Part shown: one piece after another, positions 23,964 to 49,305 of the stretch
Position numbering within the stretch: the stretch's first letter is position 1
How the letters are laid out: each line of letters starts with the position of its first letter
DNA from: Lachnospiraceae bacterium
Lineage (GTDB): Bacteria; Bacillota; Clostridia; Lachnospirales; Lachnospiraceae
Length of the DNA stretch: 49,470 bases
Assembly (NCBI GenBank): GCA_024683155.1
Contig: JAIKYN010000036.1
Location: 1-49,470, forward strand
Direction of reading: 5' to 3'
Notes under the pieces: model-generated
Told to the model about the DNA's origin: nothing
Seen by the model: the letters and a program-made list of their open reading frames with translations, nothing else
Databases searched by the model: none
Made by a program: the position numbers and the translations under genes

Positions 23964-23988
23964 ATACTTGGATCTAAATTGCGAAGAA

Positions 23989-24483
23989 TCACTCCGTTTT
24001 GGGTGCTTCCGCTGCCGAAGCTGCTTCTGCTGCTTTGGCTGCTTCAGCAGCTTTTGCTGCTTCCGCTGCTTTCTTTGCTGCCATAGCGGCAGCGGCCTTC
24101 TCAGCTGCTTCCTTACGCTTTGCTTCTTCCGCAGCAAGGACCTCGGGAGACTTGGTATAAGTTGCAGCAACCTTCTCTCCGCCGGGTTCCTGATAACCGG
24201 GAACAACGCTGAGACACTTCTTAGGACATTTCTCTGCGCAGTAACCACAGACGATACAATTGAAACGGTCAATGGTCCAGGTTCCCTTGTTACGATCTAC
24301 TTCCAGAGCACCGCAGGGACATACGCGCACGCACATACCACAGGAAATACAGTCATCTACACTGATCTCAATGTGGCCGCGGCTTCTCTCCGGATATACA
24401 GCCGGCTCAGCAGGATAGCTGGTCGTTACCGGCTTTTTAAACATATTTTTCAGCGCCGTAGGCGCAAATTGCATGATTGCCAT
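23989..24483 (-). CDS. echF: Ech hydrogenase 2x[4Fe-4S] subunit (EchF/NuoI-like) with an Ala/Lys/Glu-rich C-terminal tail
   Basis: CISCGMCVRVCP and CIVCGYCAEKCP motifs. Start at ATG 24483 (MAIMQF) with AGGAGG upstream. The tail is AAEEAKRKEAAEKAAAAMAAKKAAEAAKAAEAAKAAEAASAAEAPKTE. Confidence 0.88.
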   Translation of the reverse strand: MAIMQFAPTALKNMFKKPVTTSYPAEPAVYPERSRGHIEISVDDCISCGMCVRVCPCGALEVDRNKGTWTIDRFNCIVCGYCAEKCPKKCLSVVPGYQEPGGEKVAATYTKSPEVLAAEEAKRKEAAEKAAAAMAAKKAAEAAKAAEAAKAAEAASAAEAPKTE

Positions 24484-24529
24484 ATTAACCTCCTGTGTCA
24501 CTTCATAGCGACTTCCACGTGAATGTTCA

Positions 24530-25612
24530 TTACCGCTCGGTACAACTGATACAAGGATCAATTGTAAGCACCAGAAGGCCTACATCCGCCAGTTCTGTGT
24601 TCTTAAGCATCTCACAGAGACCGGGAACGTTTGCGAAGGTCGGTGTGCGGACTCTCATACGCTGCAGGTTCGGCTTACCGTTGGCTTTTACATAGTAGAA
24701 CGCTTCACCACGGGGCTGCTCAACACGCATGAAATATTCACCATCGGGGTTACCCTTAATGGCTACAGCCAGATCGCCTTCTGCAGGGATCTTTGCCACC
24801 GCCTGACGGATCAGATCGATGGACTGGAACAGCTCCTGCATACGAACGTAGCATCTTGCATAGCAGTCACCGTCTTCACTGATGATCGGCTCAAAATCAA
24901 GCATCGGATATGCGGCATACCCTAAGGTTCTCATATCGGAAACCACTCCGCTGGCTCTTGCAAACGGTCCAACGGCACCAAGGCGATTGATCTGTTCCTT
25001 GGTCAGTACACCGACACCCTTTAATCTGGACTGTACGGAATAGTCGTTGAAGAAGGTCTTCTTCATCTCCTTCAGTTCTTCTTCCACTTCATCCATGGTG
25101 GTTAAAATGATCTTCAGCATATCCGCGGGGATGTCTTTCATTACACCACCCACTTTATTTACAGAGAAGATCAGACGTCCGCCGGAGGTCATCTCCTGCA
25201 GATCCAGAACCTTCTCACGTACTCTCCAGCACTGATAGAACAGGTTCTCAAAACCAAAACCGTCTGCCAGAAGACCCAGCCATAACAGGTGGCTGTGCAT
25301 TCTTCCGATCTCAGCCCAGATGGTACGAAGGAATTTCGCACGATCGGGGATATCTACACCAAAGATATGCTCCACTGCTTCGCAATAGCCCATACCATGC
25401 TGGAAAGAGCAGATACCACAGGTTCTCTCTACAACATATGTCATCTGGTTAAAATCACGCTTATCAACCAGACCTTCCAAACCTCTGTGAATAAATCCGA
25501 TGGAAGGAATTGCTTCAATGACTCTCTCATCTTCTACTACCAGGTCAATATGAATTGGCTCCGGAAGAACGGGATGCTGAGGACCAAAAGGAATTACGCT
25601 TCTTTTACCCAT
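24530..25612 (-). CDS. echE: Group-4 [NiFe] hydrogenase large subunit (EchE/NuoD-like)
   Basis: N-terminal Ni-Fe motif RTCGICSFQH. The C-terminal DPCISCTER is followed directly by the stop codon. Confidence 0.93.
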   Translation of the reverse strand: MGKRSVIPFGPQHPVLPEPIHIDLVVEDERVIEAIPSIGFIHRGLEGLVDKRDFNQMTYVVERTCGICSFQHGMGYCEAVEHIFGVDIPDRAKFLRTIWAEIGRMHSHLLWLGLLADGFGFENLFYQCWRVREKVLDLQEMTSGGRLIFSVNKVGGVMKDIPADMLKIILTTMDEVEEELKEMKKTFFNDYSVQSRLKGVGVLTKEQINRLGAVGPFARASGVVSDMRTLGYAAYPMLDFEPIISEDGDCYARCYVRMQELFQSIDLIRQAVAKIPAEGDLAVAIKGNPDGEYFMRVEQPRGEAFYYVKANGKPNLQRMRVRTPTFANVPGLCEMLKNTELADVGLLVLTIDPCISCTER

Positions 25613-25613
25613 A

Positions 25614-25994
25614 TCAGTTCTCCTCCTCTGTCTTCTGAGGGCCCATCGGTGCTTCCTGACGGATCCGGTACAACTTGTTCTCGTAGTCCAGATTGATCAT
25701 CTTGATCTTCACACCAAAGAGTTCCTTCATCTCATTTTCGTAAAATACTGCAGCCGGTACGATCTCGGTGATACTGGGGATCTCGGTTGCGGGATCGATC
25801 ACCACACGAAGATTGTGCAGCTGATACGTCTCATAATCGGAAAAGGAATAGCTCAGCTCGAACTTTCCGTCTACAAAGGCAGCACATGCCTGAGAGAAAC
25901 GATATCCGGACTTGGTCAGTTCCAGAGATCTCTTAAGAAGATCGTCTGCTTCGATGACTTCCAGAATGTTTTCAGGATTTCTGATTTCACCCAT
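25614..25994 (-). CDS. echD: Ech small hydrophilic subunit (EchD, truncated NuoC-like)
   Basis: 126 aa. AVFYENEMKELFGVKI resembles the NuoC ERE-x-x-D-x-FG motif. Start is tightly coupled to the echC stop (TAATG). Confidence 0.8.
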   Translation of the reverse strand: MGEIRNPENILEVIEADDLLKRSLELTKSGYRFSQACAAFVDGKFELSYSFSDYETYQLHNLRVVIDPATEIPSITEIVPAAVFYENEMKELFGVKIKMINLDYENKLYRIRQEAPMGPQKTEEEN

Positions 25995-26467
25995 TAGTTC
26001 TGTGCTCCTTTCTTTGCAGCCTTCTTCTTTTCCTTCACCTGCGCCTTGTATTCATTGGAGCGCTGCTGGAAAATACCGACTGCCTTAATGATGCCGTCCA
26101 TGATGGCCTGCGGTCTTGCCGCACATCCGGGAACGTATACGTCCACGGGAATGGTAGTATCCGCACCACCTAAGATGTTGTAGCAATCCTTGAACACGCC
26201 GCCGGTACAAGCGCATACGCCAACTGCAACCACAACTTTGGGTCTGGGCATCTGATCATATAACTGCTTTACTGTATCCTGGTTCTGGGAATTAATACCG
26301 CCGGTTACCAGGAGAATATCTGCCTGCATCGGGTCACCTGTGTTCATGACACCCAGTCGTTCTGCGTCATAAACAGGAGTCAGGCAGGCAAGTACTTCAA
26401 TATCACATCCGTTACAGCTGGATCCATCGTAATGGAGCAGCCAGGGAGATCTTGTAATGTTTGCCAT
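25994..26467 (-). CDS. echC: Ech hydrogenase small subunit (EchC/NuoB-like)
   Basis: Fe-S ligand cysteines CNGCDIE, GVCACTGG and PGCAARP. Confidence 0.92.
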   Translation of the reverse strand: MANITRSPWLLHYDGSSCNGCDIEVLACLTPVYDAERLGVMNTGDPMQADILLVTGGINSQNQDTVKQLYDQMPRPKVVVAVGVCACTGGVFKDCYNILGGADTTIPVDVYVPGCAARPQAIMDGIIKAVGIFQQRSNEYKAQVKEKKKAAKKGAQN

Positions 26468-26485
26468 CGTTTCTACCTCTTACCT

Positions 26486-27349
26486 TTACTTCATAATCAT
26501 GAGAACCACCAGGTTAACGCCTGCAGAGAAGAAGGTGAGGATCCAGGTGATCTTCAACATATCCTGCCACTTCATACGGGCACTGGAGTTATCAATCAGG
26601 ATTTCCAGGAAATATACTGCCAGGATCACCAGAACCGCTGCGAGGATGCTGATGGGATTGGTATTTACAACAAACAGACCGATCACACCTAAAAGGAATA
26701 CATTCTCGTACCACTCGGTTACCTGGAACAGAGCCAGGTTCTTGGAACCCATCTCTGTGGTAAGGCCCTTGACCAGCTCCTGATGCATATGATGAGAAGT
26801 ACTGGTATCAAAGGGAGACTTACGCATCTTAATGGTAAGGATAAATACAAAGGCTACAAAACAACCGGGTAAATATACCAGATAGCTGACAGATGTCTGA
26901 GCGATATCCCCTACGTTAAAGCTGCCGGCTGCCAGATAGAAACCTACGCAGGTAAGCAGTACGGCAGGCTCATAAGCCATCATCTGGATCAGCTCTCTCT
27001 GTGCTCCGATGGAAGAATAAGGAGAACTGGTTACCACTGCTGCAAAATACAGGAAAGTTGCAGCGGTGGATAAGATGAAGAAGCACATCAGCATATCACT
27101 GCCTGCCCAGAACATAACACCGGTCAGGACCATGAGAATAAAATAGGTCAGGATCAGGAATGTCTGAGCGGTTGCCACGTTAATGGTTTCCTTGTTAAAT
27201 AACTTGATCACATCGTAGAACGGCTGTAAAAGCGGAGGTCCTACTCTTCGCTGCATCTTTGCGGAGATCTTACGATCGATCCCCTCCAGCAGACCACCGA
27301 TAAAAGGTGCCAGCAGAATATAGCAGATCACTAAAATCCATTTACTCAC
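26486..27349 (-). CDS. echB: Ech membrane subunit (EchB/NuoH-like)
   Basis: 8-TM profile. RRVGPPLLQPFYDVIKL is a NuoH/HycD-type motif. GTG start overlaps the echA TGA (GTGA). Confidence 0.9.
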   Translation of the reverse strand: MSKWILVICYILLAPFIGGLLEGIDRKISAKMQRRVGPPLLQPFYDVIKLFNKETINVATAQTFLILTYFILMVLTGVMFWAGSDMLMCFFILSTAATFLYFAAVVTSSPYSSIGAQRELIQMMAYEPAVLLTCVGFYLAAGSFNVGDIAQTSVSYLVYLPGCFVAFVFILTIKMRKSPFDTSTSHHMHQELVKGLTTEMGSKNLALFQVTEWYENVFLLGVIGLFVVNTNPISILAAVLVILAVYFLEILIDNSSARMKWQDMLKITWILTFFSAGVNLVVLMIMK

Positions 27350-29265
27350 AGACTCACACCTCCTAAGATCATACTTAACATAATTACCAGAAATGCAAGT
27401 GCAAAGATCTGGCTGGGGATCATCAGCTTACGCTGACCGATCACCTTGTGGAAATAGAAATTGGACAACCACAGAGTCTTCTCATCGCCGAAGGAATCGG
27501 TAAACTTGCGGTTATCACCGGTATTGATACCGTTCATATAAGAAAGCACGAACGTCTTACGCATTCTCTTACTGTATGCATAGGAAAGCACCGGTACTGC
27601 AAATACCACAACGATAACGGCCACCAGGGTATACAGGACACCCTGCGGGAGAACGTTCTGTGCCTCACCGAACATGCTGGTGATCAGAGGATTCACATAA
27701 ACCTCGGACAGCATGGGGAATAACATACACAGCAGAACCATAAGGACTGCATGGATGGTCAGGGAGAAAGTCTCATTGGGCTTGGTCACATCCCGGAAGG
27801 TCTTCTCTTTCAAATGGCTGGCACTGATGATCTTGCCCATCCACTTGGTCCAGTAGAAGGAAGTGGTGGCAGAACCGAAGCAGATGAAGAATACCAGCAT
27901 GATATTACGCTCATCTACAGATGCCTTCAGGGCAGACCACTTGGAGATCAGCATACCGAAGGGTGCCAGGAACATACCTGCGATACCGATGAACATGAAA
28001 ATGGCCAGTCTGGGCAGAATGAACAGCAGACCGTGCATATCTTCCACATCTCTGGAATGGAGGCAGTTCTCGGTTGCTCCAACGTCCTGGAATAACAGGG
28101 ACTTGGAGATCGCATGGAACAGCATTAAGAATACAGCAGCCCAGATGGTTTCCGGAGTACCTACGCCGGCGCAGGCAACCATCAGACCTAAGTTGGAGAT
28201 GGTGGAGAACGCCAGAACCTTCTTGGCATCACTTTGTGCGATGGCCATGAAGGAGGTGATCAGGAATGTGAAGCCGCCGATGAAAGCGATCATGGTACCG
28301 GTTGTGGTCTCAGCCATTGCAGGAGACAGACGAAGGAGGACATAGATGCCTGCCTTAACCATCGTGGCACTATGCAGCAGTGCGGAAGAAGGTGTGGGCG
28401 CAACCATGGCTCCGATCAGCCAGGTTGAGAACGGCATCTGTGCTGCCTTGGTCAGTGCTGCAAAAGCGATCAGTGCAACGGGAATGGTAGCAACTACCTT
28501 GCCGGCTACACCTGCTTCAACCAGAGCATGCAAAGAAACAGTACCTGCATTGTATCCGAAATAAACAATTCCGATCGCCAGCGCAGTACCGCCGAATAAG
28601 TTCATCCATAATGCACGGAAGGAATTGTGGATCGCCTGCTCTTCCTTGGTATAACCGATCAGCAGGAAGGAAATGATGCTGGTCAGTTCCCAGAAGAAAT
28701 CGATCCAAAGCAGATCCTCGGAAAGTACAAAGCCAAACATCGCACCTAAAAACAGGAACAGCAGAGAGAAGAAATAATATCTGCGATCTTCCAGGTCCGC
28801 ATGATGCTTGTGATAACCGTGCATGTAACCTACGGCATAGATGATGATCAGAGTTCCGATCACCGCAATGATCAGTACCATTAAAATGGAAAGATGATCG
28901 ATGTAAATGTGATCACACTCTTCCACCTCCGGGCCGTAAAGCTCAAAATATGCGATTAACATTGTGGGAATGATAGAAAGTAAACTGATCCAGTACTTTC
29001 TATACTTGAAACACAATACCGTTACAAATACCATGAGCAACAGCTCTGCGCCAAGGATCACATGATCCACCAGCTCCGTATCTGCATAACAGGTAATGGT
29101 CGTGCATCCACCCATGATCCACTGAACCAGCAACGTAAGTGCGGCACCGACGATCACGGCTGAACAGACATACGCAAGCGCTGCTCTCGCCTTGCTGTTT
29201 CTTGTTAAAAACATAACGAACGAAACGCAAAAAGGGAACAGTACTAAGAATGGAACAACTGCCAT
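27346..29265 (-). CDS. echA: Ech membrane antiporter-like subunit (EchA/NuoL-like)
   Basis: 639 aa, about 16 TM helices. Antiporter-type motifs (WLIGAMVAPTPSSALLHSATMVKAGIY). GGAGG RBS. Confidence 0.9.
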   Translation of the reverse strand: MAVVPFLVLFPFCVSFVMFLTRNSKARAALAYVCSAVIVGAALTLLVQWIMGGCTTITCYADTELVDHVILGAELLLMVFVTVLCFKYRKYWISLLSIIPTMLIAYFELYGPEVEECDHIYIDHLSILMVLIIAVIGTLIIIYAVGYMHGYHKHHADLEDRRYYFFSLLFLFLGAMFGFVLSEDLLWIDFFWELTSIISFLLIGYTKEEQAIHNSFRALWMNLFGGTALAIGIVYFGYNAGTVSLHALVEAGVAGKVVATIPVALIAFAALTKAAQMPFSTWLIGAMVAPTPSSALLHSATMVKAGIYVLLRLSPAMAETTTGTMIAFIGGFTFLITSFMAIAQSDAKKVLAFSTISNLGLMVACAGVGTPETIWAAVFLMLFHAISKSLLFQDVGATENCLHSRDVEDMHGLLFILPRLAIFMFIGIAGMFLAPFGMLISKWSALKASVDERNIMLVFFICFGSATTSFYWTKWMGKIISASHLKEKTFRDVTKPNETFSLTIHAVLMVLLCMLFPMLSEVYVNPLITSMFGEAQNVLPQGVLYTLVAVIVVVFAVPVLSYAYSKRMRKTFVLSYMNGINTGDNRKFTDSFGDEKTLWLSNFYFHKVIGQRKLMIPSQIFALAFLVIMLSMILGGVSL

Positions 29266-38048: not shown

Positions 38049-39344
38049 TTATTTCTTCAGGGGACTTTCACGATAAATGATATCACTTCTTCCGGGTCCG
38101 TTACTTACCATGGTGATGGGGTAACCGATCTGCTCCTCGATGAATTCCACATACTTGCGGCAGTTCTCGGGAAGATCCTCATATTTCTTAATGCCGCGGA
38201 TCTCGCATTTCCATCCGGGAAGGGTCTTATATACCGGCTTCGCCTTGGCAAGCTGTGTGGTTACGGGGAAATCGGTGGTCACGGTTCCGTCCACATCGTA
38301 CCCTACGCAAACCGGGATCTCATCCAGATAGCCCAGAACATCCAGTACCGTAAAAGCAACATCGGTGGTTCCCTGCAGTCTGCAACCGTACTTGGAAGCT
38401 ACGCAGTCAAACCATCCCATTCTTCTGGGACGACCGGTGGTTGCGCCGTACTCTCCGCCGTCACCGCCGCGTCTTCTAAGCTCATCGGCTTCCTGTGCAT
38501 CTTCGATCTCGGATACGAAAAGGCCGGCTCCTACTGCAGAAGAATAAGCCTTGCAAACCGTTACGATCTGCTTGATCTCATAAGGCGGAAGACCTGCTCC
38601 GATGGCACCGTAGGCTGCCAGTGTGGAGGAAGAGGTAACCATGGGATAGATACCGTGATCGGGATCCTTCAGGGTTCCCAGCTGACCTTCCAAAAGGACG
38701 GTCTTGCCTTCCTTCAGCGCTTTATCCAGATATAAGGAAACATCGCATACGTAAGGCTCTACCATGGTGCGATATTCCTTCAGGGTATTCATTAATTCTT
38801 CCACATCCAGTAAAGGCTTGTGATACAGATGCTCTAACAGGATGTTCTTGGTGACCACAACCCGCTCCAGTTTCTCTCTGAGAGCTGCTTCATCAAAGAG
38901 CTCGCTGACCTGGAAACCGATCTTGGCATACTTATCGGAATAGAAAGGCGCGATACCGGACTTGGTGGAACCGAAGCTCTTGCCGGCCAGACGTTCTTCC
39001 TCATACTGATCAAATAAAATATGATAAGGCATTACGATCTGTGCACGATCGGATACCAGGATGTGAGGCATGGGAACATTACGATCCGTAATGGACTTGA
39101 TCTCGTTAAACAGGATCGGGATGTTTAATGCCACACCGTTACCGATGATGCTGGTGGTATGCTGATAAAATACACCGGAAGGAAGGGTATGTAATGCGAA
39201 CTTACCGTAGTTGTTCACAATGGTATGTCCTGCATTGGCACCACCCTGAAAGCGAATGATAATGTCCGCATTCTCTGCCAGCATATCTGTGATCTTTCCT
39301 TTACCTTCGTCGCCCCAGTTGGCGCCGACTACTGCCTTAACCAT
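38049..39344 (-). CDS. purA: Adenylosuccinate synthase
   Basis: GANWGDEGKGK P-loop, GNGVAL, TTGRPRR. Confidence 0.96.
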   Translation of the reverse strand: MVKAVVGANWGDEGKGKITDMLAENADIIIRFQGGANAGHTIVNNYGKFALHTLPSGVFYQHTTSIIGNGVALNIPILFNEIKSITDRNVPMPHILVSDRAQIVMPYHILFDQYEEERLAGKSFGSTKSGIAPFYSDKYAKIGFQVSELFDEAALREKLERVVVTKNILLEHLYHKPLLDVEELMNTLKEYRTMVEPYVCDVSLYLDKALKEGKTVLLEGQLGTLKDPDHGIYPMVTSSSTLAAYGAIGAGLPPYEIKQIVTVCKAYSSAVGAGLFVSEIEDAQEADELRRRGGDGGEYGATTGRPRRMGWFDCVASKYGCRLQGTTDVAFTVLDVLGYLDEIPVCVGYDVDGTVTTDFPVTTQLAKAKPVYKTLPGWKCEIRGIKKYEDLPENCRKYVEFIEEQIGYPITMVSNGPGRSDIIYRESPLKK

Positions 39345-39566
39345 GAAAACCTCCGTTCCGGAGAAAGGTATCTCCCATCTCCCACAAAAAAGGGAGACAG
39401 TCCTGTAAAACCGCTCCCTTGCGTTTTTACTTCATGAGTATACCAAAGGAATACTTATAAGTAAAATCAATATATTTTATGTTATTCATAAGTAGCGCTT
39501 ATAGGAACGGAACATTCCTTTATTTACGGCATTTTCCAGTGCAGCCGTTTCTCCCGTCATGCATCT

Positions 39567-41000
39567 TTATACATTGATGGTGGCGGTTACACCCAGCAGA
39601 TCCTTGTTGGCATCCAGAATGGGCTGTACGGTATTCTTAAGGAAATTCGTGGTCTGCTGCGGCGCATACCCTACATAAAGCTTCGGATCCATGGACTTCA
39701 TCAGGTCCTCTTTCTTAAGACCGAACTTGGGATCGGCTGCGATAAGATCCAGCAGATTATTCTCCAGGCCCTCTTCCTTCACATGCTTGCCTGCTTCCAT
39801 GGAAAGGACACGAATGGCTTCATGGAGTTCCTGACGGTCTCCGCCGGCATTGACCGCATCCATCATGATATTCTCGGTAGCCATGAAAGGAAGCTCTGCC
39901 ATCATATGCTTCTCGATCACCTTGGGATATACCACGAGGCCATCCACCACGTTGAGACACAGATCCAGAATACCGTCCGTTGCCAGGAATCCTTCGGGCA
40001 CGGAAAGCCGCTTGTTGGCGGAATCATCCAGGGTACGCTCAAACCACTGGGTTGAAGATACAATGGCGGGGTTTAATGCGTCTGCGATGACGTAATCGGC
40101 CAGAGAGCAGATTCGCTCGCTTCGCATGGGATTTCTCTTATAAGCCATGGCGGAAGATCCGATCTGTTTCTTCTCGAAGGGTTCTTCCACTTCCTTCAGA
40201 TGCTGCAGCAGACGGATGTCATTGGCCATCTTGTGGGCGCTGGCTGCGATCCCTGCCAGTACGTTCAGTACCCGGGTATCCACCTTACGGGAATAGGTCT
40301 GTCCGGATACGGGATAGCATCCGCTAAAGCCCATCTTTTCCGCGATCATGGGATCCAGACGATCCACCTTGGACGTATCTCCGTGGAACAGTTCCATGAA
40401 AGAAGCCTGGGTTCCGGTGGTTCCCTTACAGCCCAGAAGCTTCATATGATCCAGGGTAAATTCCAGTTCTTCCAGATCCAGTAAGAATTCCTGCATCCAC
40501 AGCGTCGCACGTTTTCCGACGGTGGTGGGCTGTGCGGGCTGGAAATGTGTAAAGGCCAGGGTAGGCTGTGCCTTATATTTATCCGCAAACTTAGAAAGCT
40601 CTGCCAGTACGTTGATCAGCTTCTTACGGACCAGCTTCAGGGCTTCGGTCATTACGATGATGTCGGTATTATCGCCTACATAACAGGAGGTAGCTCCCAG
40701 ATGGATGATCCCCTTGGCACCGGGACACTGCACGCCGTAAGCATATACATGGCTCATAACGTCATGGCGCACTTCCTTCTCCCGGGCGATGGCCACTTCG
40801 TAATTGATATCCTCTGCGTGAGCCTTCAGCTCGGCGATCTGTTCGTCGGTGATGTTAAGACCCAGTTCCTTCTCGGTTTCCGCAAGGGCGATCCACAGTT
40901 TTCTCCAGGTGTGGAACTTCATGTCCTGTGAAAAGATGAACTGCATCTCCTTGCTGGCATAACGCTGGGAAAGCGGGCTTTGATAGATTGCTGTTTCCAT
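39567..41000 (-). CDS. purB: Adenylosuccinate lyase
   Basis: 477 aa. Fumarate-lyase signature GSSAMAYKRNP. Confidence 0.95.
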   Translation of the reverse strand: METAIYQSPLSQRYASKEMQFIFSQDMKFHTWRKLWIALAETEKELGLNITDEQIAELKAHAEDINYEVAIAREKEVRHDVMSHVYAYGVQCPGAKGIIHLGATSCYVGDNTDIIVMTEALKLVRKKLINVLAELSKFADKYKAQPTLAFTHFQPAQPTTVGKRATLWMQEFLLDLEELEFTLDHMKLLGCKGTTGTQASFMELFHGDTSKVDRLDPMIAEKMGFSGCYPVSGQTYSRKVDTRVLNVLAGIAASAHKMANDIRLLQHLKEVEEPFEKKQIGSSAMAYKRNPMRSERICSLADYVIADALNPAIVSSTQWFERTLDDSANKRLSVPEGFLATDGILDLCLNVVDGLVVYPKVIEKHMMAELPFMATENIMMDAVNAGGDRQELHEAIRVLSMEAGKHVKEEGLENNLLDLIAADPKFGLKKEDLMKSMDPKLYVGYAPQQTTNFLKNTVQPILDANKDLLGVTATINV

Positions 41001-41100: not shown

Positions 41101-42291
41101 TCAATGGTATTTTTCTCTGATTTCATCTGCATATTGCGGATAAGATACAAGCAGATTGTCTAATTCGGATCTTGTCATCTCCAGCGTCGCCTTGTTGTAA
41201 TCCATCTGCTTGCGCAGTTCCTGACGCTGCAGGATCAGACGATGGCGGATCTCCACCATTTCCCGGTTGTCGAAGATGGCCTGGGCCTGGTGGATCCAGA
41301 TCTCCGGTGTCTTTACCCGGTATCTTCGAAGCAGCTGCACCAGAAGGGACTTGTACCGGTTCAGGTCATCCTCCATCTCCATGAAATGCTGGCGCTCTTC
41401 CTTTTCTTCCAGATACTTTTTATACATCCGCTCAAACTGCTGCCCGTTCTTCACTTTATACTTCAGGCACAGATAGTCGATGAGGTTCTTATTGTTCACA
41501 TAGCGGATCTTCACCGTATTTTGCAGACCGATGAGACGGTTGATGGTATTCTCCACCCGGCGAAGCTCCTTTTTGGCATCCATATAGCGGGCAAACAAAA
41601 AAGCCGTGACCACAGCCGCTGCTGCCGCTGTAAGCATATATCCCAGCTGGGTATCCAGATGAAACGCCATCTGCAGGATCACCAGCATCACAAAGCAGAC
41701 CATCAGGGCTACCAGACAGATCATGGCCATTCCCTTATAATTGGCCATATCCCTCTGCAGCTCCCGTCTGCGGTACTGATAGGCACTTCTTTCTCCGTCC
41801 AGGCGGCGCAGATCCTTCCGGATCTTCTCATGGTACTCTTCCGCTCCTTTTAATTTAGCGATGCCTTCCTCCGCTTCTTCACCGATGCGTTCCATGGCTT
41901 CAAACTGATCATCGGGAAGGCGGTCCTTCTTCTCTCTGTATTTTACCCGGTCTACCTGAAGATTCTCGATCTTCAGAGCATAGGAACAGAGCTCCGTCTT
42001 ATCTTCCGGAGGAAGGGACTCGATCTCCTCCATATCCGTTAAAAGGGAGGTGACCCGGGCATATTCTTCTTCCAGGCGCTCTAACTCCGCGCCGGCTTCT
42101 TCCACCCTTGCCACGCAATTGTCCACGTAGTCTCCCCGTTGCATGGGATTGTGCATATCCAACTTGCGCTGGCGCACCGGGATCAGCTGTTCCGGATTTT
42201 TGACCAGTTCTTCTTCAGAGCTTAGCTCCTCGGGAGCATCCAGGTCTTCTTCTGTCATCTTACGTCGGAAAAAATCAAAAAATCGACTCAT
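41101..42291 (-). CDS. Unknown: coiled-coil protein with a central two-helix membrane hairpin (gene 4 of the operon)
   Basis: 396 aa. Acidic, heptad-rich N-terminal 185 aa. TM1 at about 188-209 (MAMICLVALMVCFVMLVILQMAF) and TM2 at about 217-235 (GYMLTAAAAAVVTAFLFARY). Basic helical C-terminal 160 aa. Start is 3 nt after the upstream stop. Confidence 0.85.
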   Translation of the reverse strand: MSRFFDFFRRKMTEEDLDAPEELSSEEELVKNPEQLIPVRQRKLDMHNPMQRGDYVDNCVARVEEAGAELERLEEEYARVTSLLTDMEEIESLPPEDKTELCSYALKIENLQVDRVKYREKKDRLPDDQFEAMERIGEEAEEGIAKLKGAEEYHEKIRKDLRRLDGERSAYQYRRRELQRDMANYKGMAMICLVALMVCFVMLVILQMAFHLDTQLGYMLTAAAAAVVTAFLFARYMDAKKELRRVENTINRLIGLQNTVKIRYVNNKNLIDYLCLKYKVKNGQQFERMYKKYLEEKEERQHFMEMEDDLNRYKSLLVQLLRRYRVKTPEIWIHQAQAIFDNREMVEIRHRLILQRQELRKQMDYNKATLEMTRSELDNLLVSYPQYADEIREKYH

Positions 42292-42294
42292 AGG

Positions 42295-43128
42295 TTATGC
42301 CTCGTCCGATGCACTTTCTCGGTAGTCATACTTCAGGTTCTGGATCCGGCGATGGATCTCGTCAAAATAATCGTACTGCTTGCCATCGGTGATCTCTTTG
42401 GTCTTTACATATTCCGGAGAGTAGGTCCAATCCCGCTCCAGGGTGCTCACATCGGCCTCCAGCGCCATGGATGCACGGTTCCATTCGGGATGGGCCGAGA
42501 TAAACCGGATATATTCTTCCGTAGGCGCATACATCCTTACAGCTGCCAGATACGCCTGGATAATGGTCTGATCCTCCGGCAGAAGATCCGCCGCCCGGGC
42601 AAACGCATCCGCCGCTTCCTGATACAGAAACAGGTTAGCCAGGGCCGTTCCCATGTTGCACAGAACATCCCCATGGAACTTCCGGTCTGCATCGGGCATA
42701 TCTCCCAGCAGCTCCTGGTATTCCTCCACCGCACGGATGTACTTCCCTACAGAGAGCATGTAATCCGCATGATGACGGCGTTTCTCATAGGTGGTAAGGC
42801 CGGAGCCCGTCTGCAGGATATTCTCTACATAATTCACCTGCCTGGTATCATAGTTCCCGGTGTAATCCAGGATGATCCCCGCCAGTGCCCCTGCCGAACC
42901 GTTCTGGTTCATCAGCTCGTGAAGACTCTTGGCCAGATCCTTTAATCCCAGAGAATGATCGATCCAGCTGACCAGATCCCGATCCACCAGAGAATCCTCC
43001 AGCACAAAGGCATTCTCACAGATGACATAGCACAGCTCTTCGATGCTGTACACATGAATGTCCGCGTTCTTAACATAATATGGAGTTTGGGCACGGTTCC
43101 CGATGGGAACAAATACTCTTCCTGCCAT
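42295..43128 (-). CDS. Unknown: small alpha/beta N-domain plus TPR-like helical repeats (gene 3 of the operon)
   Basis: 277 aa. TPR-like stretch ADYMLSVGKYIRAVEEYQELLG...CNMGTALANLFLYQEAADAFARAADLLP. Start is 6 nt after the upstream stop. Confidence 0.85.
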   Translation of the reverse strand: MAGRVFVPIGNRAQTPYYVKNADIHVYSIEELCYVICENAFVLEDSLVDRDLVSWIDHSLGLKDLAKSLHELMNQNGSAGALAGIILDYTGNYDTRQVNYVENILQTGSGLTTYEKRRHHADYMLSVGKYIRAVEEYQELLGDMPDADRKFHGDVLCNMGTALANLFLYQEAADAFARAADLLPEDQTIIQAYLAAVRMYAPTEEYIRFISAHPEWNRASMALEADVSTLERDWTYSPEYVKTKEITDGKQYDYFDEIHRRIQNLKYDYRESASDEA

Positions 43129-43134
43129 AGTGCT

Positions 43135-44460
43135 CTATAACTGCTCCTTCTCTCCTACATCCAGTTCTTCCATCCAGCGCCGCATGGTGGCCTGGAAGAT
43201 CTCTCCGAAGCCCAGATCCTGTACCTGGATCCGTGCCCTGGAAGGACTGATCATAGCGATGTGTATGTGTAATCTTGTGGTCATACGGGGGCGTTCCGGA
43301 AGTCCGTCCAGCACCATCTCCGCCTGCCAGGGCTTGGACCCTGTAAGAGGGGTAATGGTAAAAGTCAGCACATTGCCGCTTTCCATCATCAGGTCGTACT
43401 CTTTCTCCGCCTCATACCAGTTCTGTCCCGCATCGATCAGTGCCAGATAACTGCCGCTTCCGCGACGAAATACCGGCATACCGATGTTAGACTTACATTT
43501 CTCCTCCCCCAGAAAAACGATCTTGCGATCTTCCTCCGGAGGGCGGGATTTATCCACAGCTGCATAAGCAGCCCCTTTGCTGTACAGGTTGCTTCCCTTG
43601 AACACATGCCGTCCCCGGCACAGAAACTGCAGGGAAGCCTTCATCCATTCCTGCCGGAACCCGTCTCCGATGAGATAAACGGAAGACACTACACGCTCTG
43701 CGCACAGCTCTTCACAGGCCTTCAGGAAATCGTTGTCCAGATTCTCTTCTATGGTCCTGCGGTATACCCCGTCCTCCGGCCACTGGGTGATCCCCGGTAC
43801 ATCCGGATGCTCCTTCTTCTCGATGAAGGCTACCACCGGTTTGGTATGGTGATTGCACTCCATCCGGTAGCTGGTCAGGGGGCCGTCTTCCAGGTCGAAG
43901 ACAATGGTCTGGTAGGTCCATAACGCTTCCGGTTGATGGACATTGTATTCAAAGATACTCTCGGTATAATTCTGGAACATGACCCGGGTCTTCTTAAGGA
44001 CCAGACCTGCCGTCACCTCCTGCAGCACCTGTACCATTCGGGAATCAAAATTACTGCAGGTGATCATCAGCACTTCCGGTGTACCGCTCTGCTGCACGGA
44101 AAGCATGGACAGTGACCTGCGGACATACAAGGTAAGCAGTGCCACCGGATCGAATTCCTCCTGATCCACGGTAACGCTCTGCCCCTCATAGGCCAGGGAC
44201 ACCAGATGATCCACCAGGACCCCTTCACCGTTCTGCGCCCGTTTTACCGCCTCCCGGCCAAAGAACCACTGACCGGCGCCGTACCGTTTACACAGGCAGG
44301 TGGGAATGTTGAACTGCTCCGCACCGGGTACCATGGAAACGGTCTCCGCTTCCCGGCTGCCCTCTTTCACAAAGCTGATCTGGGAGAAACGGTCGTTGAG
44401 ATCGTATCCTACATAGATCTTTTCATTCAGTTGTCTCTCCTGTTCCGGTCGCAGCATCAT
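43135..44460 (-). CDS. Divergent compact Hsp70-like protein with degenerate nucleotide-binding loops (gene 2 of the operon)
   Basis: 441 aa, alignable by eye to Dna[17 protein letters not shown] vs [38 protein letters not shown] vs [38 protein letters not shown] vs [23 protein letters not shown] vs [44 protein letters not shown] vs [33 protein letters not shown]. ATGA overlap with gene 1. Confidence 0.85.
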   Translation of the reverse strand: [441 protein letters not shown]

Positions 44461-47400
44461 GTGTCTCGACTAATCCTCGGTTTAAATAGTTTTCGGGTCA
44501 TATACAGATTCTTATGGTAATCCATATACAGCGTATTGACGGTCTCGTAATCCTGCAGGATCTCTGCCGTCACCATATCGTTCAGCATACCGAACCGGCT
44601 GCCGGCGAAGAACTCGGTGGTTCCGATATCGTTCCTGAGCACCGTGGCAGATTCCGTGATCTGCTGGCTGTCGCCTTCCCGTTCGGTAATGTAATATTGC
44701 AGGCTCTCCCCGAAGAACAGGATAAAGCTCATACCGCACACCCCGCCGAACATATCCCGCATGGGTTCGCTGCGATACTCTTCCTCGTCTTCTTCGTCCT
44801 GTATGATCCGGTAATGGATCTCTGTAATGGCTCCCGGACGGGAGCGGTATTCGATCATGGTCCGGTCTGCAAAGCGCCACATTTCCGGAATGATATCAAT
44901 GTATTCCTGAAAATAAGGAAGGGCGATATTTCTTGCAGTAAGGTTAAGAAGAAAGGTTCTGAGATGCTTCTTTTCTTCCTCTCCGATCTCTTCCCGGTTC
45001 TTGGAGTAATAACGGGTATAGGCCAGTTCCACCGCTTCGGAGAATTCTTCCCCGTTGGCCGTCATCCTGGAAATACATTGCAGGATGTAGCCGGGAAGCA
45101 GGTTGTCTTTTACAAAATAACCGAAGCAGTTCAGCTCGATAAAGGCACGGATCAGATCATGGTTCCCCGCTGCCTTCACGTAGCGGGAGAAGATCTCCAT
45201 CTTATCGCCGATAAAGAAACCGGTGTACATCATCTGTACCAGCAGTTGTTCCACCAGATCGTAGGTATCGATATCGAAGGCATCGGCTGCTTTCCACAGG
45301 CTTCGAAGATCCCGCAGCCGTCCGTGGAAGAATTTCACCAGATAGCGCAGCAGCACTTCATCGTACTTCCCCCGGGAGAAGGCATAATATGCCACCTTGA
45401 CCCGCAGCAGTTCCTCCTCGTCAGGCGTCTCCGCGATGATGCTGCTGATCAGGCGAACGATCACCTTGGGGTCTTCCCCGTCAATGCCGTAAATGCAGAT
45501 CCAGTTGTAGGCTTTCTCCTGCATGCCTCTTGCTATGAAGAAACGAATGGCCTCTGCTCTGGCCGCCGCGTCCAGTCCTTCCGGCCGAAGATCCTGCAGG
45601 CAGGCATCCAGTCCCGCCATATCGTCCTTGCTGTAGCTGTAAGAAGCCAGTTTTACCGGCAAATGTCTGCGCAGCTCCACATCCACGGCTTCCGCATTCA
45701 TCAGCTGACGGAGTCTCACTTCATTTTCTTCCGTCACCTTGATCTCGTCGTCTTCCCCGCAGCACAGATACATGTTAAGACCGGTATGGTCCTTGATCTC
45801 CTGGGAGATCTGCTTTAAGAACTTGCCGGGAAGCATAAGCTTTTCCAGCACGAAATCATCTTCGGCACTGCTGCGGTTGCCCTGATCATCCTCCAGCAGC
45901 AGGTAATAATCTCTGGAATAAATGGGGAATTTAGCTTCCCCGTCCATTAAGGGGAACTTCTGCTCCGTGGCAGCCCCTTTCTGAAGAAGTACCACAAAGC
46001 GGGCATTCTTTCGCTCGGTCTGCACCCGGTTCATAAACAGGATCGGGATAAATGCACGGGCTGTCTCATCCTTCAGCATCTGATCCGTTACCACCACACG
46101 GTAGAGATAGGCCAGATTGCGGTTCACATTTCCCCGATGGATCTGATCCAGTACAAAGCTTTCGATCTGCTCGCTGTAATTATCAACGATCTCCCGATAG
46201 TCATCCTTATTCTGCCGGCGCAGCAAATTGGCATAGAGGAAGGCCTTGTGCTCGCTGTCCAGTTCACTGCGGTATGCATAATAAAGCAGCACCATCTTAG
46301 GCACCGCCCGGTCGCTTTCGGGATCCACGCTCATCATGTAATATTCGATGAGATTGGTGATCTTAAGACCCGCTTCCACCCCTTTCTCGTACCAGGTAAG
46401 ATACCTGGGGCCGGTGCAGTTTCCTTTGATCAGATAGGCACAGATGGTTTCCAGCGTCTCCGGATCGGGAGACTGGGCATAAGCCGCTTCCAGGATCCGC
46501 AATACCCGAACGTCGAACTCCTGCATACGAGGCGCCATATAATGCAGCTGGCGGATGATCTCTTCCGTCAGGTATCCGTTCCTTGCCGCAAACAGCAGGA
46601 TACGGATCTCAAAGGTGTTCAGATGGAATAACAGGGCGGGATCGTTCCGCCACAGGATCAGTGCCTCAATATAAAGCACCGGACTGATGCAGCCTCTTTC
46701 AAACTGTTCCTGCAAAAGCATCCATTTTCCCGAAGAGGAATCATAAAACTCCGGAGAAAGATATAACAGGAGCCAGGCCAGGCACCAGTTATCCGGATAT
46801 TGTTCATACAAACGGCGTACATCCACCGCCGTGCTGTTTACATAGGTTTCATCCCGCTTCAGCAGGGTGGTAAGATACAGATAATACCCCCAGATGGCAG
46901 GGTTCTTGTCATCACTGCCCATAATGGCATTACGGGCTCTGTCCAGAGTCCACTGGGCCTCATTTAACTTCGCCTGGGTTGCCAGCACCTGGGCACGATA
47001 TAACTGAGGAACCGGATCCTCCGGACGCTCTCCCTGCATCTGGCTCAGCACCCGGTCCGTCTCTTCCATCCAGGCCGACTTGCTCTTTTTCTTCATGCGA
47101 TAGGCCTGATAGGATCGGATCAGCTCGAAGATCTCCTGTTCCTCCTTCAGTTTATCCTTGGCATGGATGTAATTGGGATCGGCTTTTTCCACTTCAATGG
47201 GAACCTGCAGCGTGTTCTCATGAAACCGCACCAGGATCTTGCCGAAGTTCTTGCCGGTATGAAGTTTTTCTCCATGAAGATCAAAAAGGATCTTGCCCTG
47301 ATTGCCCAGAAAATCGTTGTCGGTAAGATGAGACTTCTCTAAGACGATGAAATCCCCTTCGGCTTCCACATCCACCGATGTGGCGCCCCATCCGTTCCGG

Positions 47401-48047
47401 ACGATGGACAGGAAATGACGGCTGACCAGATCGTCTACCGTTACCTGCAGACGGGAGTCTTCTACTATATATTCGATCCGCTGTTTCTTACCGATGGAGA
47501 CCAGGAACTCTTCCATGTTCTCTTCCCGGCCGGGAATAACGGAAAGTCCCCGATACAGCGAAAGATATACGGCATCATTGCCGATGAGGATGCTTTCAAA
47601 GGAAGGGCTGTAAAAAACCGTAAGCGCTTCTTCCCAGCTGGCCTTGGCCAGGTTGGCAAAATGGATCAGATTACGGATCTCTCCCAGGGAAGAATGCATG
47701 GGAGCCATAGACATGACAACAGACCAGGAAAGGGTATACTCTCCCTGGTTACTGACAATACAGAATTCTCCGGTCGCTGTGTCTCCAAAGCGCATGCCTC
47801 TGGCATTGAAGCGAAATGCGATCTCCTCATCGGTACCCACAAAATGCGGTGTAAGACACTCCATGCGGACATCGCAGGAATAGACATATCCTTCGGTCAG
47901 ACGCCCTGACTCTCCCAGGATATGGAAAGACCCTTCGAATTCCCCCGGCTCTGTTAATGTGATCTCCACCTTCTCGCAGGAGAACGACAACGAGCCGACC
48001 TCATAATCAAATTTTCCCCTTAATATCTGATCGATGATCTGCTTCAA
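44457..48047 (-). CDS. Unknown 1196-aa cytosolic protein: two N-terminal beta-sandwich-like modules plus long helical-repeat regions (gene 1 of the operon)
   Basis: Uninterrupted 3.6-kb ORF with the window's typical codon bias. TTG start (48047-48045) with AGGA about 10 nt upstream. No signal peptide and no TM segment. Confidence 0.85.
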   Translation of the reverse strand: MKQIIDQILRGKFDYEVGSLSFSCEKVEITLTEPGEFEGSFHILGESGRLTEGYVYSCDVRMECLTPHFVGTDEEIAFRFNARGMRFGDTATGEFCIVSNQGEYTLSWSVVMSMAPMHSSLGEIRNLIHFANLAKASWEEALTVFYSPSFESILIGNDAVYLSLYRGLSVIPGREENMEEFLVSIGKKQRIEYIVEDSRLQVTVDDLVSRHFLSIVRNGWGATSVDVEAEGDFIVLEKSHLTDNDFLGNQGKILFDLHGEKLHTGKNFGKILVRFHENTLQVPIEVEKADPNYIHAKDKLKEEQEIFELIRSYQAYRMKKKSKSAWMEETDRVLSQMQGERPEDPVPQLYRAQVLATQAKLNEAQWTLDRARNAIMGSDDKNPAIWGYYLYLTTLLKRDETYVNSTAVDVRRLYEQYPDNWCLAWLLLYLSPEFYDSSSGKWMLLQEQFERGCISPVLYIEALILWRNDPALLFHLNTFEIRILLFAARNGYLTEEIIRQLHYMAPRMQEFDVRVLRILEAAYAQSPDPETLETICAYLIKGNCTGPRYLTWYEKGVEAGLKITNLIEYYMMSVDPESDRAVPKMVLLYYAYRSELDSEHKAFLYANLLRRQNKDDYREIVDNYSEQIESFVLDQIHRGNVNRNLAYLYRVVVTDQMLKDETARAFIPILFMNRVQTERKNARFVVLLQKGAATEQKFPLMDGEAKFPIYSRDYYLLLEDDQGNRSSAEDDFVLEKLMLPGKFLKQISQEIKDHTGLNMYLCCGEDDEIKVTEENEVRLRQLMNAEAVDVELRRHLPVKLASYSYSKDDMAGLDACLQDLRPEGLDAAARAEAIRFFIARGMQEKAYNWICIYGIDGEDPKVIVRLISSIIAETPDEEELLRVKVAYYAFSRGKYDEVLLRYLVKFFHGRLRDLRSLWKAADAFDIDTYDLVEQLLVQMMYTGFFIGDKMEIFSRYVKAAGNHDLIRAFIELNCFGYFVKDNLLPGYILQCISRMTANGEEFSEAVELAYTRYYSKNREEIGEEEKKHLRTFLLNLTARNIALPYFQEYIDIIPEMWRFADRTMIEYRSRPGAITEIHYRIIQDEEDEEEYRSEPMRDMFGGVCGMSFILFFGESLQYYITEREGDSQQITESATVLRNDIGTTEFFAGSRFGMLNDMVTAEILQDYETVNTLYMDYHKNLYMTRKLFKPRISRDT

Positions 48048-48113
48048 ATTCGTAATTCCTATAGTTTTTTACATACATAATGAGTATATCATAAAAAACT
48101 TTCAAAAAATATA

Positions 48114-48229: not shown

Positions 48230-48604
48230 ATGGCATGGAATTTTGACAACGACAGGCCCATCTATTCACAGTTGGTTGAGATCCTCCAGACCCAGATCGT
48301 TTCCGGCGAATATAAACCCGGGGACAAGCTTCCTTCCGTTCGGGAACTGGCCATTACCGCTGCGGTGAATCCCAACACCATGCAGCGGGCTTTCAGCGAA
48401 CTGGAACGGGAAGGTCTGGTAAGTACCAACCGAACCACCGGACGCACCGTAACCGAAGATCCTGCACTGATCTCCGAGGTACGTAAAGAACTGGCGTCCA
48501 ACCACGTAACCTGCTTCTTCCGCAAGATGAAGGAACTGGGTTATACCAATGAGGAGATTACCGCTCTCACCAGTGAGGCGGCTACCAGGGAGGAGAATGA
48601 GTAA
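48230..48604 (+). CDS. GntR-family transcriptional regulator, YtrA subfamily (short)
   Basis: 124 aa. PIYSQLVEILQTQIVSGEYKPGDKLPSVRELAITAAVNPNTMQRAFSELEREGLV wHTH with a short C-terminal helical tail. Confidence 0.92.
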   Translation: MAWNFDNDRPIYSQLVEILQTQIVSGEYKPGDKLPSVRELAITAAVNPNTMQRAFSELEREGLVSTNRTTGRTVTEDPALISEVRKELASNHVTCFFRKMKELGYTNEEITALTSEAATREENE

Positions 48605-49305
48605 TGGAAAACATTGTAGAATTACGGAATCTTACCAAATCCTACAACGGAAAACACAACGCCGTAGATCATGTGAATCTGGATATTCCCGGGGGACGGA
48701 TCATCGGTCTTTTAGGACCTAACGGCAGTGGTAAGACCACGATCATTAAGATGATCACCGGGCTTTTAACGCCCACCAGCGGTTCCATCATGATCGGGAA
48801 CTGCAAACCGGGCCCGGCCACCAAGGCGCATATTGCCTACCTGTCCGAGCACTCGGCATTAAACCGGAACCGGAGGATCAAGGATGCATTATATCTGCAT
48901 CAGGATTTCTTCGCGGATTTCTCCATGGATCGTGCACTGAACATGCTGGAGAACCTGAAGATCGATCCCAATGCGGCTGTAAAGACCTTATCCAAAGGTA
49001 CGCAGGAGAAGGTAAACCTGATCCTGGTCATGAGCCGTGTGGCAGACCTTTATATTCTGGATGAGCCCATTGCAGGTGTGGATCCTGCAGCCAGAGACTA
49101 CATCCTTAAGACCATCCTGACCAACTATCAGGAGCGCTCTTCCATCCTGCTTTCCACCCATCTGATCTCGGATGTGGAGAATATTCTGGATGATGTGATC
49201 TTTATCAAAGAAGGACAGATCCTGATGCAGACCACCGTGGAGAACATCCGCGAGACCCAGGGCAAGTCCGTCGACCAGTATTTCAGGGAGGTATTCGTAT
49301 GTTAG
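48604..49305 (+). CDS. ABC transporter ATP-binding protein (ABC-2 type)
   Basis: Walker A GPNGSGKTT, signature LSKGTQEK, Walker B LYILDEP. TAATG junction with the gntR gene. Confidence 0.92.
   Translation: MENIVELRNLTKSYNGKHNAVDHVNLDIPGGRIIGLLGPNGSGKTTIIKMITGLLTPTSGSIMIGNCKPGPATKAHIAYLSEHSALNRNRRIKDALYLHQDFFADFSMDRALNMLENLKIDPNAAVKTLSKGTQEKVNLILVMSRVADLYILDEPIAGVDPAARDYILKTILTNYQERSSILLSTHLISDVENILDDVIFIKEGQILMQTTVENIRETQGKSVDQYFREVFVC

Follow-up and report, generated by a model that had tools for sequence, protein, structure and literature searches.

Prokaryotic Hsp70s were divided in a 2021 review into three types, DnaK, HscA and HscC, all of which are ATP-driven and retain the ATP-binding and allosteric residues (PMC8215388). 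The remaining bacterial DnaK derivatives have been called unexplored 'dark matter' in a 2026 review, and the other derivatives are thought to lose the substrate domain and not the ATPase (PMC13580251). In yeast, Ssz1 is an Hsp70 without a lid and with a complete beta part of the substrate-binding domain (SBD-beta). It is incapable of the canonical cycle, and strands and a pseudo-substrate motif contributed by its obligate partner Zuo1 stabilise it (PMC7083937). The gene described here, g2, lies at positions 43135 to 44460 (minus strand) of a 49,470-nucleotide stretch of DNA from a Lachnospiraceae bacterium (contig JAIKYN010000036.1 of assembly GCA_024683155.1), which is called the window. It is an intact open reading frame (ORF) of 441 aa and encodes a divergent Hsp70-fold protein, which is a member of Pfam DUF5716 (PF18980), a family that is catalogued but uncharacterised. 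By analogy, Ssz1 with Zuo1, in the ribosome-associated complex, appears to be the closest analogue of g2. What is new is the recognition of DUF5716 as an Hsp70 which has no lid and no subdomain IIB, has degenerate ATP loops and comes with a tetratricopeptide repeat (TPR) partner in a four-gene operon. A full-text search of the literature gave nothing relevant on DUF5716, DUF5717 or Hsp70-like proteins of Lachnospiraceae.

Family assignment and predicted fold

Residues 131-434 of g2 match Pfam DUF5716_C with an E value of 3e-99 and 332 bits, against a gathering cut-off of 34.7. The HSP70, MreB, FtsA and actin models of Pfam and NCBIfam have no match in g2, and the NCBIfam and PADLOC scans of g2 returned no matches. 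A comparison with all PDB sequences, by phmmer and by the family profile, gave noise only; the rotavirus VP6 matches in this search (E 0.05-0.14) were rejected as noise. Membership of g2 in a defence system was rejected on the basis of the PADLOC scan. Of 50 DUF5716 members none (0/50) has a match to Pfam HSP70 or to an actin-like family, with a threshold as loose as E<=10. Since ordinary sequence searches gave no link to Hsp70, the original prediction, in which g2 was aligned with DnaK by eye, needed structural and profile-profile tests. In sequence, the Hsp70 kinship of g2 is visible by profile-profile comparison only (E 2e-5). The first collection of g2 homologues contained 1463 matches, of which 50 were aligned, and 1786 DUF5716 relatives were found among 50%-identity representatives. 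An alignment of 247 DUF5716 sequences was built from both collections and is the basis of all family percentages and entropies below.

The AlphaFold2 (AF2) model of g2 has a mean predicted local distance difference test score (pLDDT) of 91 and a predicted template modelling score (pTM) of 0.84. When the model was compared with the PDB by Foldseek, Hsp70 chains made up all 50 listed matches (E 1e-20 to 5e-15) and both domains were covered. The best match is Geobacillus DnaK (4ani_C, E 1e-20), and the matches listed include Hsc70, BiP, mortalin, Ssb, Ssz1 (6sr6, 7x3k) and lidless constructs. Identity to the Hsp70s is 10-14%, with query-normalised TM scores (TMq) of up to 0.60. At the level of the fold g2 fits the Hsp70 superfamily, having a two-lobed nucleotide-binding domain (NBD) followed by a beta-sandwich in one chain.

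The actin-like NBD comprises residues 14-310 (43531 to 44421, minus strand), as assigned from DSSP of the model and from the hhalign match of residues 16-257 with DnaK 4-248. In the DSSP assignment, domain II is a bare beta-beta-beta-alpha-beta-alpha-beta-alpha core, with strands at 184-189, 194-203, 209-222, 258-264 and 285-288 and helices at 231-253, 274-280 and 292-305. Hsp70 and actin insert the IIB lobe after the third strand of domain II, and in Hsp70 this lobe clamps the adenosine and binds exchange factors. Subdomain IIB is absent from the g2 model. The hydrophobic linker (IVFLG) and the eight-stranded SBD-beta basket occupy residues 311-434 (43159 to 43530, minus strand), with the strands modelled between residues 324 and 434. 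Only 7 residues follow the last of them (428-434) before the chain ends at 441; therefore, the protein has no helical lid. Most g2 homologues in the 50-sequence alignment also stop directly after the last basket strand.

The AF2 model, Foldseek and hhalign thus bear out the Hsp70 fold with NBD and SBD-beta that had been proposed by eye, and the end of the chain in the model agrees with the proposed absence of the lid. The absence of the lid is not the whole cause of the compactness of g2, and the shortfall of about 200 residues relative to DnaK results from the loss of both the lid and NBD subdomain IIB.

The g2 model superposes better on docked DnaK (ATP-like or 'stimulating' forms, TMq 0.53-0.60) than on the undocked ADP forms (2kho and 4ani, TMq 0.46-0.47). 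The best superpositions are with E. coli DnaK 7kru and 7krv (TMq 0.58-0.60). The predicted model suggests that the NBD and SBD of g2 may be held in a fixed docked arrangement.

Register of the ATP-site motifs

For the comparison with DnaK, a profile was made from 78 DnaK genes in IMG/VR, which were recruited with an E. coli DnaK sequence. This query was validated by tblastn, which found 80 loci of nearly full length with 64-72% identity. In hhalign, the 247-sequence DUF5716 profile aligns g2 residues 16-257 with DnaK 4-248 (probability 77%, E 2e-5) and, at the end of the basket, residues 381-419 with DnaK 456-494 (E 0.0019). The broader profiles were needed, as with 50 aligned sequences on one side and one DnaK sequence on the other only the basket matched, and weakly (E 0.13).

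Three motifs had been quoted as replacements of the catalytic loops, and DLNDRFS (residues 20-26), DLEDGPLT (189-196) and GDGFR (265-269) are all present in g2. For the first two, the phosphate-1 and phosphate-2 equivalents, hhalign reproduces the by-eye register exactly. In the phosphate-1 equivalent (44383 to 44403, minus strand) DnaK D8 corresponds to g2 D20, so the Asp is retained, and the G-T-T positions are replaced, G10 by N22 and T11/T12 by D23/R24. DnaK K70 corresponds to D84. The equivalent of E171 is Q163, in a register that is possibly 1-2 residues off, and a conserved E167 is located one helical turn downstream of Q163. In the phosphate-2 equivalent (43873 to 43896, minus strand) D194 corresponds to D189, G196-G198 to E191-D192-G193, T199 to P194 and D201 to T196, the last being mostly K/R across DUF5716; this segment has neither the GGG nor an equivalent of Thr199. 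A profile alignment does not restore the catalytic residues, as it might have done had the by-eye register been wrong.

The adenosine-motif equivalent GDGFR (43654 to 43668, minus strand) is in the loop after strand 258-264. Its register, with G265 at the position of DnaK G341 and D266-G267-F268 for G-Q-T, comes from the strand order in the model and from a non-significant hhalign match of VSSVYLIG to IDDVILVG (13 columns, E 0.11). In the global hhalign the missing IIB causes residues 258-375 to be misaligned, and that alignment was not used. The claim that GDGFR is a replaced adenosine motif therefore holds as to the replacement, with the first Gly kept, in a register drawn from topology and a weak match only. 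Vestiges of DnaK are still recognisable elsewhere in g2, namely G-x-D-L in phosphate-1, IP(T/S) in IB, AGL, and L-x-G-(L/I)-P...P ... D-x-x-x-G at the end of the basket.

Family-wide decay of the nucleotide site

In canonical Hsp70s the phosphate-loop residues are the most conserved of the protein, as is also visible in the DnaK consensus obtained here. In DUF5716 the constraint on these loops is relaxed. Their column entropy is 2.94 bits for phosphate-1 and 3.03 bits for phosphate-2, against a whole-protein mean of 2.16 bits, and positions 24, 191, 192 and 194 are in the 94th-100th percentile of variability. The motif D.G[TS][TS] is found in 3 of the 247 members and GGG at phosphate-2 in none of them (0/247), and the phosphate-2 loop varies in length. 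The position equivalent to K70 is D/E in 62% and K in 6%, and that equivalent to E171 is Q in 76% and E in 5%. The first phosphate-1 glycine is retained in 59% of members, followed by variable positions 23-25; the replacement of this glycine is real in g2 but is not family-wide, the change from G to N being peculiar to the g2 lineage.

One lineage, P0173 (17 sequences, one of them on 38 contigs), has a 31-residue insertion exactly within the phosphate-2 hairpin. The inserted sequence, GEGEQQGSLTGSENAELVELENRKKSDKKRE (residues ~195-227), is charged and of low complexity, and it occurs in a cluster of 765-aa fusion proteins.

The variability of the phosphate loops, the lack of GGG in all 247 members and the tolerated insertion together indicate that canonical ATPase function has probably been lost across the family. 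Most likely g2 is a pseudo-ATPase, in which ATP binding or hydrolysis would be lost. These comparative data strengthen the pseudo-ATPase claim of the original prediction. It had also been asked whether orthologues keep the same degenerate loops; the degeneracy is indeed family-wide, but the loop residues themselves are highly variable and are not the same ones.

Other parts of the protein are well conserved. The motif L-I-G-[DE]-G-F-x-x-W is constrained (G265 100%, D/E266 86%, F268 90%, W272 93%), the E167-S168 pair is conserved in >92% of members, and basket segment 321-348 is more conserved than average (1.71 vs 2.16 bits). D/E is found at the phosphate-1 Asp position (20) in 97% of members and at position 189 in 85%. 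The pattern of conservation indicates that selection has shifted from phosphate binding to other surfaces of DUF5716, and among the comparative data it is the strongest argument for a pseudo-ATPase.

These same residues could be explained differently if g2 were still a nucleotide-dependent machine. The site would be a remodelled one, made up of D20, Q163, E167/S168, D189 and G265-[DE]-G-F, and ATP or another nucleotide would be bound there and perhaps hydrolysed. The basket would cycle between states of different affinity, and g3 or g1 of the same operon would take the regulatory part that J-proteins and exchange factors have elsewhere. This explanation is considered rather unlikely, but it has several points in its favour: both metal-coordinating Asp positions of the acetate and sugar kinase/Hsp70/actin (ASKHA) fold are kept as D/E, G265 is invariant, the g2 model still has the hydrophobic linker and a docked arrangement of NBD and SBD, and ATP hydrolysis may persist in bacterial DnaK derivatives (PMC13580251). 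It is difficult to reconcile with loops for the beta- and gamma-phosphates that vary more than any other part of the family, differ in length and tolerate 31 additional residues, or with the loss of the Lys70 and Glu171 equivalents and of the adenosine-clamping IIB. A nucleotide-independent g2 is the preferred reading.

The TPR partner g3 and gene fusions

The next gene, g3 (42295 to 43128, minus strand), encodes a 277-aa protein with a novel N-terminal domain (residues 1-107), about three TPR repeats and long C-terminal helices. The TPR core, residues 110-212 (42493 to 42801, minus strand), contains helix pairs 113-143, 149-182 and 187-212. In Pfam g3 has a single, sub-threshold TPR match. 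A single-sequence search found 7 proteins only, so a profile from syntenic orthologues was needed; with the profile of 59 g3 orthologues, residues 110-195 match TPR proteins of the PDB such as Tah1 (E 1.6e-5). The AF2 model of g3 has a pLDDT of 90. Its Foldseek matches are the three-repeat consensus TPR protein CTPR3, with target-normalised TM scores (TMt) of 0.8-0.9, and also MamA, PilF and Sti1 TPR2AB. The neighbour that had been described as TPR-like therefore has a real TPR core, by profile as well as by AF2 and Foldseek.

Natural fusions join the two proteins. Full g2+g3 fusions account for 8 of the top 150 DUF5716 representatives at 50% identity; these are 685-765 aa long with linkers of 14-20 aa. 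Examples are the protein WP_026504008.1 of the isolate Butyrivibrio sp. NC3005 and one cluster of 1109 member sequences. In the genome loci that were compared, g2 and g3 are fused in 3 of 84 (L088, L090, L156). A physical complex of g2 and g3 is therefore strongly supported, on the evidence of recurrent fusions in nature, and the direct interaction that had been put forward gains support in the same way.

The mode of contact that had been mentioned with it, by analogy with eukaryotic TPR co-chaperones, is not supported. Docking through an EEVD tail and a carboxylate clamp would require an acidic tail on g2. The family alignment of g2 has no conserved acidic C-terminal tail of the EEVD type, and most members end in hydrophobic residues. 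A two-carboxylate clamp consists of K and N in repeat 1, N in repeat 2, and K and R in repeat 3. When g3 is mapped onto the TPR consensus, K/R118 and N158 fit the clamp positions, but the Asn position of repeat 1 is an invariant Asp, D122.

The first 16 residues of g3 (43081 to 43128) have the consensus M-G-R-x-L-L-C-x-G-x-Y-A-x-x-P-Y, in which G10 and P16 are invariant. The extreme N-terminus is without regular secondary structure in the monomer model, and in the fusion proteins the N-terminal segment of g3 comes directly after the last DUF5716 basket strand. This segment is a candidate pseudo-substrate or strand-addition segment, as judged from its conservation and position. In an Acetatifactor metagenome-assembled genome, the g3 orthologue (L160, 9509-10363) has an internal stop, and may be a pseudogene or the result of an assembly error.

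The four-gene cassette

Two further genes belong to the operon. The first gene of the cassette, g1 (44457 to 48047, minus strand), encodes a 1196-aa DUF5717 protein (Pfam DUF5717_N, E 2e-282; DUF5717, E 2e-91). The last, g4 (41101 to 42291, minus strand), encodes a protein of 396 aa, which has no family match; its N-terminal region is a coiled coil, a membrane hairpin of two helices follows, and the C-terminal region is helical. The two predicted transmembrane helices of g4 are within residues 186-237 (41581 to 41736, minus strand), with Kyte-Doolittle values >1.6, a short loop between them and basic flanks. This hairpin sits between coiled-coil-like regions that are predicted to be cytoplasmic, and g4 is the only one of the four cassette proteins with hydrophobic membrane segments. 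The profiles of g1 and g4 have no sequence relatives in the PDB.

The order DUF5717, DUF5716, TPR protein and g4 holds throughout the 84 Lachnospiraceae loci compared (84/84), at pairwise identities of 28-50%. Upstream of DUF5716 g1 is present in 82 of these, and g4 is found in 83, with misses only at contig ends. The four genes remain side by side, whereas their upstream flanks vary from locus to locus. In the window, the stop codon of g1 and the start codon of g2 overlap in ATGA (4 nt), and the gaps are 6 nt between g2 and g3 and 3 nt between g3 and g4. By this spacing of stops and starts, the cassette is translationally coupled.

The three genes g2, g3 and g4 (41101-44460) share one reading frame, with a stop and two codons between g2 and g3 and a stop and one codon between g3 and g4. 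Loss of one stop in the window would recreate the g2-g3 fusion that is found elsewhere. Programmed read-through from g2 to g3 was rejected, as frame and spacing vary among the 84 loci, and the shared frame of g2, g3 and g4 is probably coincidental.

An extended -10 element, TGATATACT (48083 to 48091, minus strand), is located 35 nt upstream of the g1 start. Of 74 orthologous loci, 63 have the pattern TGnTA[TC]A[AC]T (TGnTAYAMT) in the 150 nt that precede g1, in most cases at a distance of 30-60 nt from its start. In the upstream regions of g1 from 75 loci there is essentially no consensus for the sporulation factors SigE, SigF/G, SigK and SigH or the flagellar factor SigD. The same four-gene operon is always found and its promoter is of the housekeeping type; therefore, the cassette probably serves a core cellular function, as far as gene order and promoter sequence can tell. 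DUF5716 is present in at least 588 species-level genomes, and of the 80 that are listed almost all carry the label Lachnospiraceae, with Butyrivibrio, Acetatifactor and Kineothrix among them.

It is quite improbable that the gene order reflects inherited synteny only, with g2 acting alone as a low-affinity holdase for unfolded clients in general and g1, g3 and g4 functionally unrelated to it. All loci do come from a single family, Lachnospiraceae, and purB, which is presumably unrelated, is also syntenic in 60 of 84 loci. However, the independent g2-g3 fusions, the overlapping or near-abutting stop and start codons, and the persistence of the four genes next to differing upstream flanks argue for a functional unit.

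The composition of the operon also bears on a cytoskeletal explanation. With its coiled-coil protein anchored in the membrane and a scaffold-like protein of very large size, it would suit a filament-forming or membrane-organising g2 of the actin, ParM or FtsA kind, for which the basket would be a structural appendage, and the ASKHA fold is common to the NBD and the bacterial actins. Nevertheless, this is very improbable. The 50 listed structural matches of g2 are all Hsp70s, with no actin, MreB, ParM or FtsA among them, and basket segment 321-348 is more conserved than the protein average. Known bacterial actins retain their nucleotide-binding loops, unlike g2, in which the loops are degenerate.

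As to the further surroundings of the cassette, purB is found within 8 kb downstream in 60 of the 84 loci, and 11 loci have purA (in the window, region 38049-41000). This link with genes of purine biosynthesis may be functional or may be inherited synteny. In loci L003 and L004 (694-2766) a gene for HtpG (Hsp90) and one for a protein with a peptidoglycan-binding domain are immediately upstream of the cassette; this neighbourhood was seen in these two loci only, which have an identical DUF5716 protein.

Proposed mechanism

DUF5716 is a Lachnospiraceae-wide family which descends from Hsp70. It has lost the lid, IIB, and the Gly/Thr loops, Lys70 and Glu171 of the ATP site, and has kept the NBD core, the linker and the complete SBD-beta basket. 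In the proposed mechanism g2 would have no ATP-driven chaperone cycle. It would be a binding module of fixed conformation that acts independently of nucleotide, with a defined peptide segment held in the conserved basket, and the TPR protein encoded downstream, g3, would be stably bound to it. The pair may be part of a larger cytoplasmic assembly in which the DUF5717 protein g1 would be the scaffold, and this assembly may be tethered to the membrane via the coiled-coil hairpin protein g4. It is thus reasonably probable that g2 is a nucleotide-independent Hsp70-fold adaptor, permanently associated with a TPR protein, in a membrane-tethered assembly with DUF5717 and g4.

Several points weigh against this reading. 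The conserved residues D/E20, D/E189, Q163, E167-S168, G265 and G-[DE]-G-F could form a non-canonical nucleotide or ligand site. The docked geometry of g2 is a property of the predicted model only, and the alignment of residues 258-375 to DnaK is without statistical support. The interface between g2 and g3 and their mode of contact are presumed, g1 and g4 are putative members of one complex with g2-g3, and the cellular role is likewise a presumed one. Finally, since all the loci are from one bacterial family, the synteny could partly be the result of shared ancestry.

A wider proposal is put forward tentatively. Under it, prokaryotic Hsp70s would have a fourth, hitherto undescribed lineage in DUF5716, and no bacterial pseudo-Hsp70 would have been known before. 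Having given up ATP and the lid, the protein would serve as the permanent peptide-holding subunit of a four-protein machine that is specific to Lachnospiraceae and tethered to the membrane, in parallel to Ssz1-Zuo1. The basket would then be occupied by the conserved N-terminus of g3 or by a segment of g1 or g4, as a built-in pseudo-substrate.

Comparison with known Hsp70 systems

With DnaK, HscA and HscC, g2 shares the NBD, the hydrophobic linker and the eight-stranded SBD-beta, with structural matches down to E 1e-20. Unlike them, it has no lid, no IIB, no TT, GGG or T199 loops, no K70 and no E171, and no J-protein or GrpE is encoded nearby. A J-domain, DnaJ or GrpE domain is found neither in g1, g3 and g4 nor in the called genes of the 8-kb flanks of loci L001-L004; the result covers the cassette and its flanks, and such partners may be encoded elsewhere in the genome.

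In Ssz1 the Hsp70 sequence is still recognisable and the nucleotide-binding site is kept. The likeness to Ssz1 (and HSPA14) is that g2 is also lidless and seems to have a dedicated partner, a relationship which is indicated here by gene fusion and synteny. In contrast to Ssz1, g2 has degenerate loops and lacks IIB, and there is no sequence kinship between the two beyond the Hsp70 fold. The partners differ as well. Zuo1 is a J-domain protein and Ssz1-Zuo1 is ribosome-bound, whereas the putative partner of g2 is a TPR protein without a J-domain, and its operon points to the membrane.

The pairing of an Hsp70-fold protein with a TPR protein of about three repeats is similar to the Hop/Sti1, CHIP and Tah1 systems. 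The docking appears to differ, as g2 has no EEVD-like tail and g3 has D122 at the clamp Asn position. The association of g2 and g3 also seems to be permanent, as judged by the fusions, whereas eukaryotic TPR co-chaperones bind transiently. DnaK derivatives of the YegD type typically keep the NBD and have lost or altered the linker, basket and lid (YegD is NBD only); DUF5716 is the opposite case, in which linker and basket are kept and it is the nucleotide site that has decayed.

Other features of the window

Divergent from the cassette, at 48230-49305, are a putative GntR-like protein (124 aa, identified by a look at the sequence) and an ATP-binding protein of the ABC-transporter type. In L001-L004 the pair is not conserved beside the cassette. 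At 21534-29265 a gene for the HypF carbamoyltransferase (912 aa) is near one for a 639-aa membrane subunit resembling Mrp/complex-I-type antiporters, which suggests a region for maturation and assembly of a membrane-bound hydrogenase. An ORF of 490 aa at 1614-3086 (minus strand) has no Pfam match at E<=1e-5.

Significance

The family appears to have taken a different evolutionary route from other DnaK derivatives, one in which the ATPase decays, the basket and linker are under selection, and the protein becomes firmly tied to a TPR partner. DUF5716 may therefore serve as a natural test of what an Hsp70 basket is capable of without nucleotide control. Lachnospiraceae are a dominant family of gut and rumen bacteria, and the cassette offers an entry point to the functions of DUF5716, DUF5717 and the family-less proteins g3 and g4.

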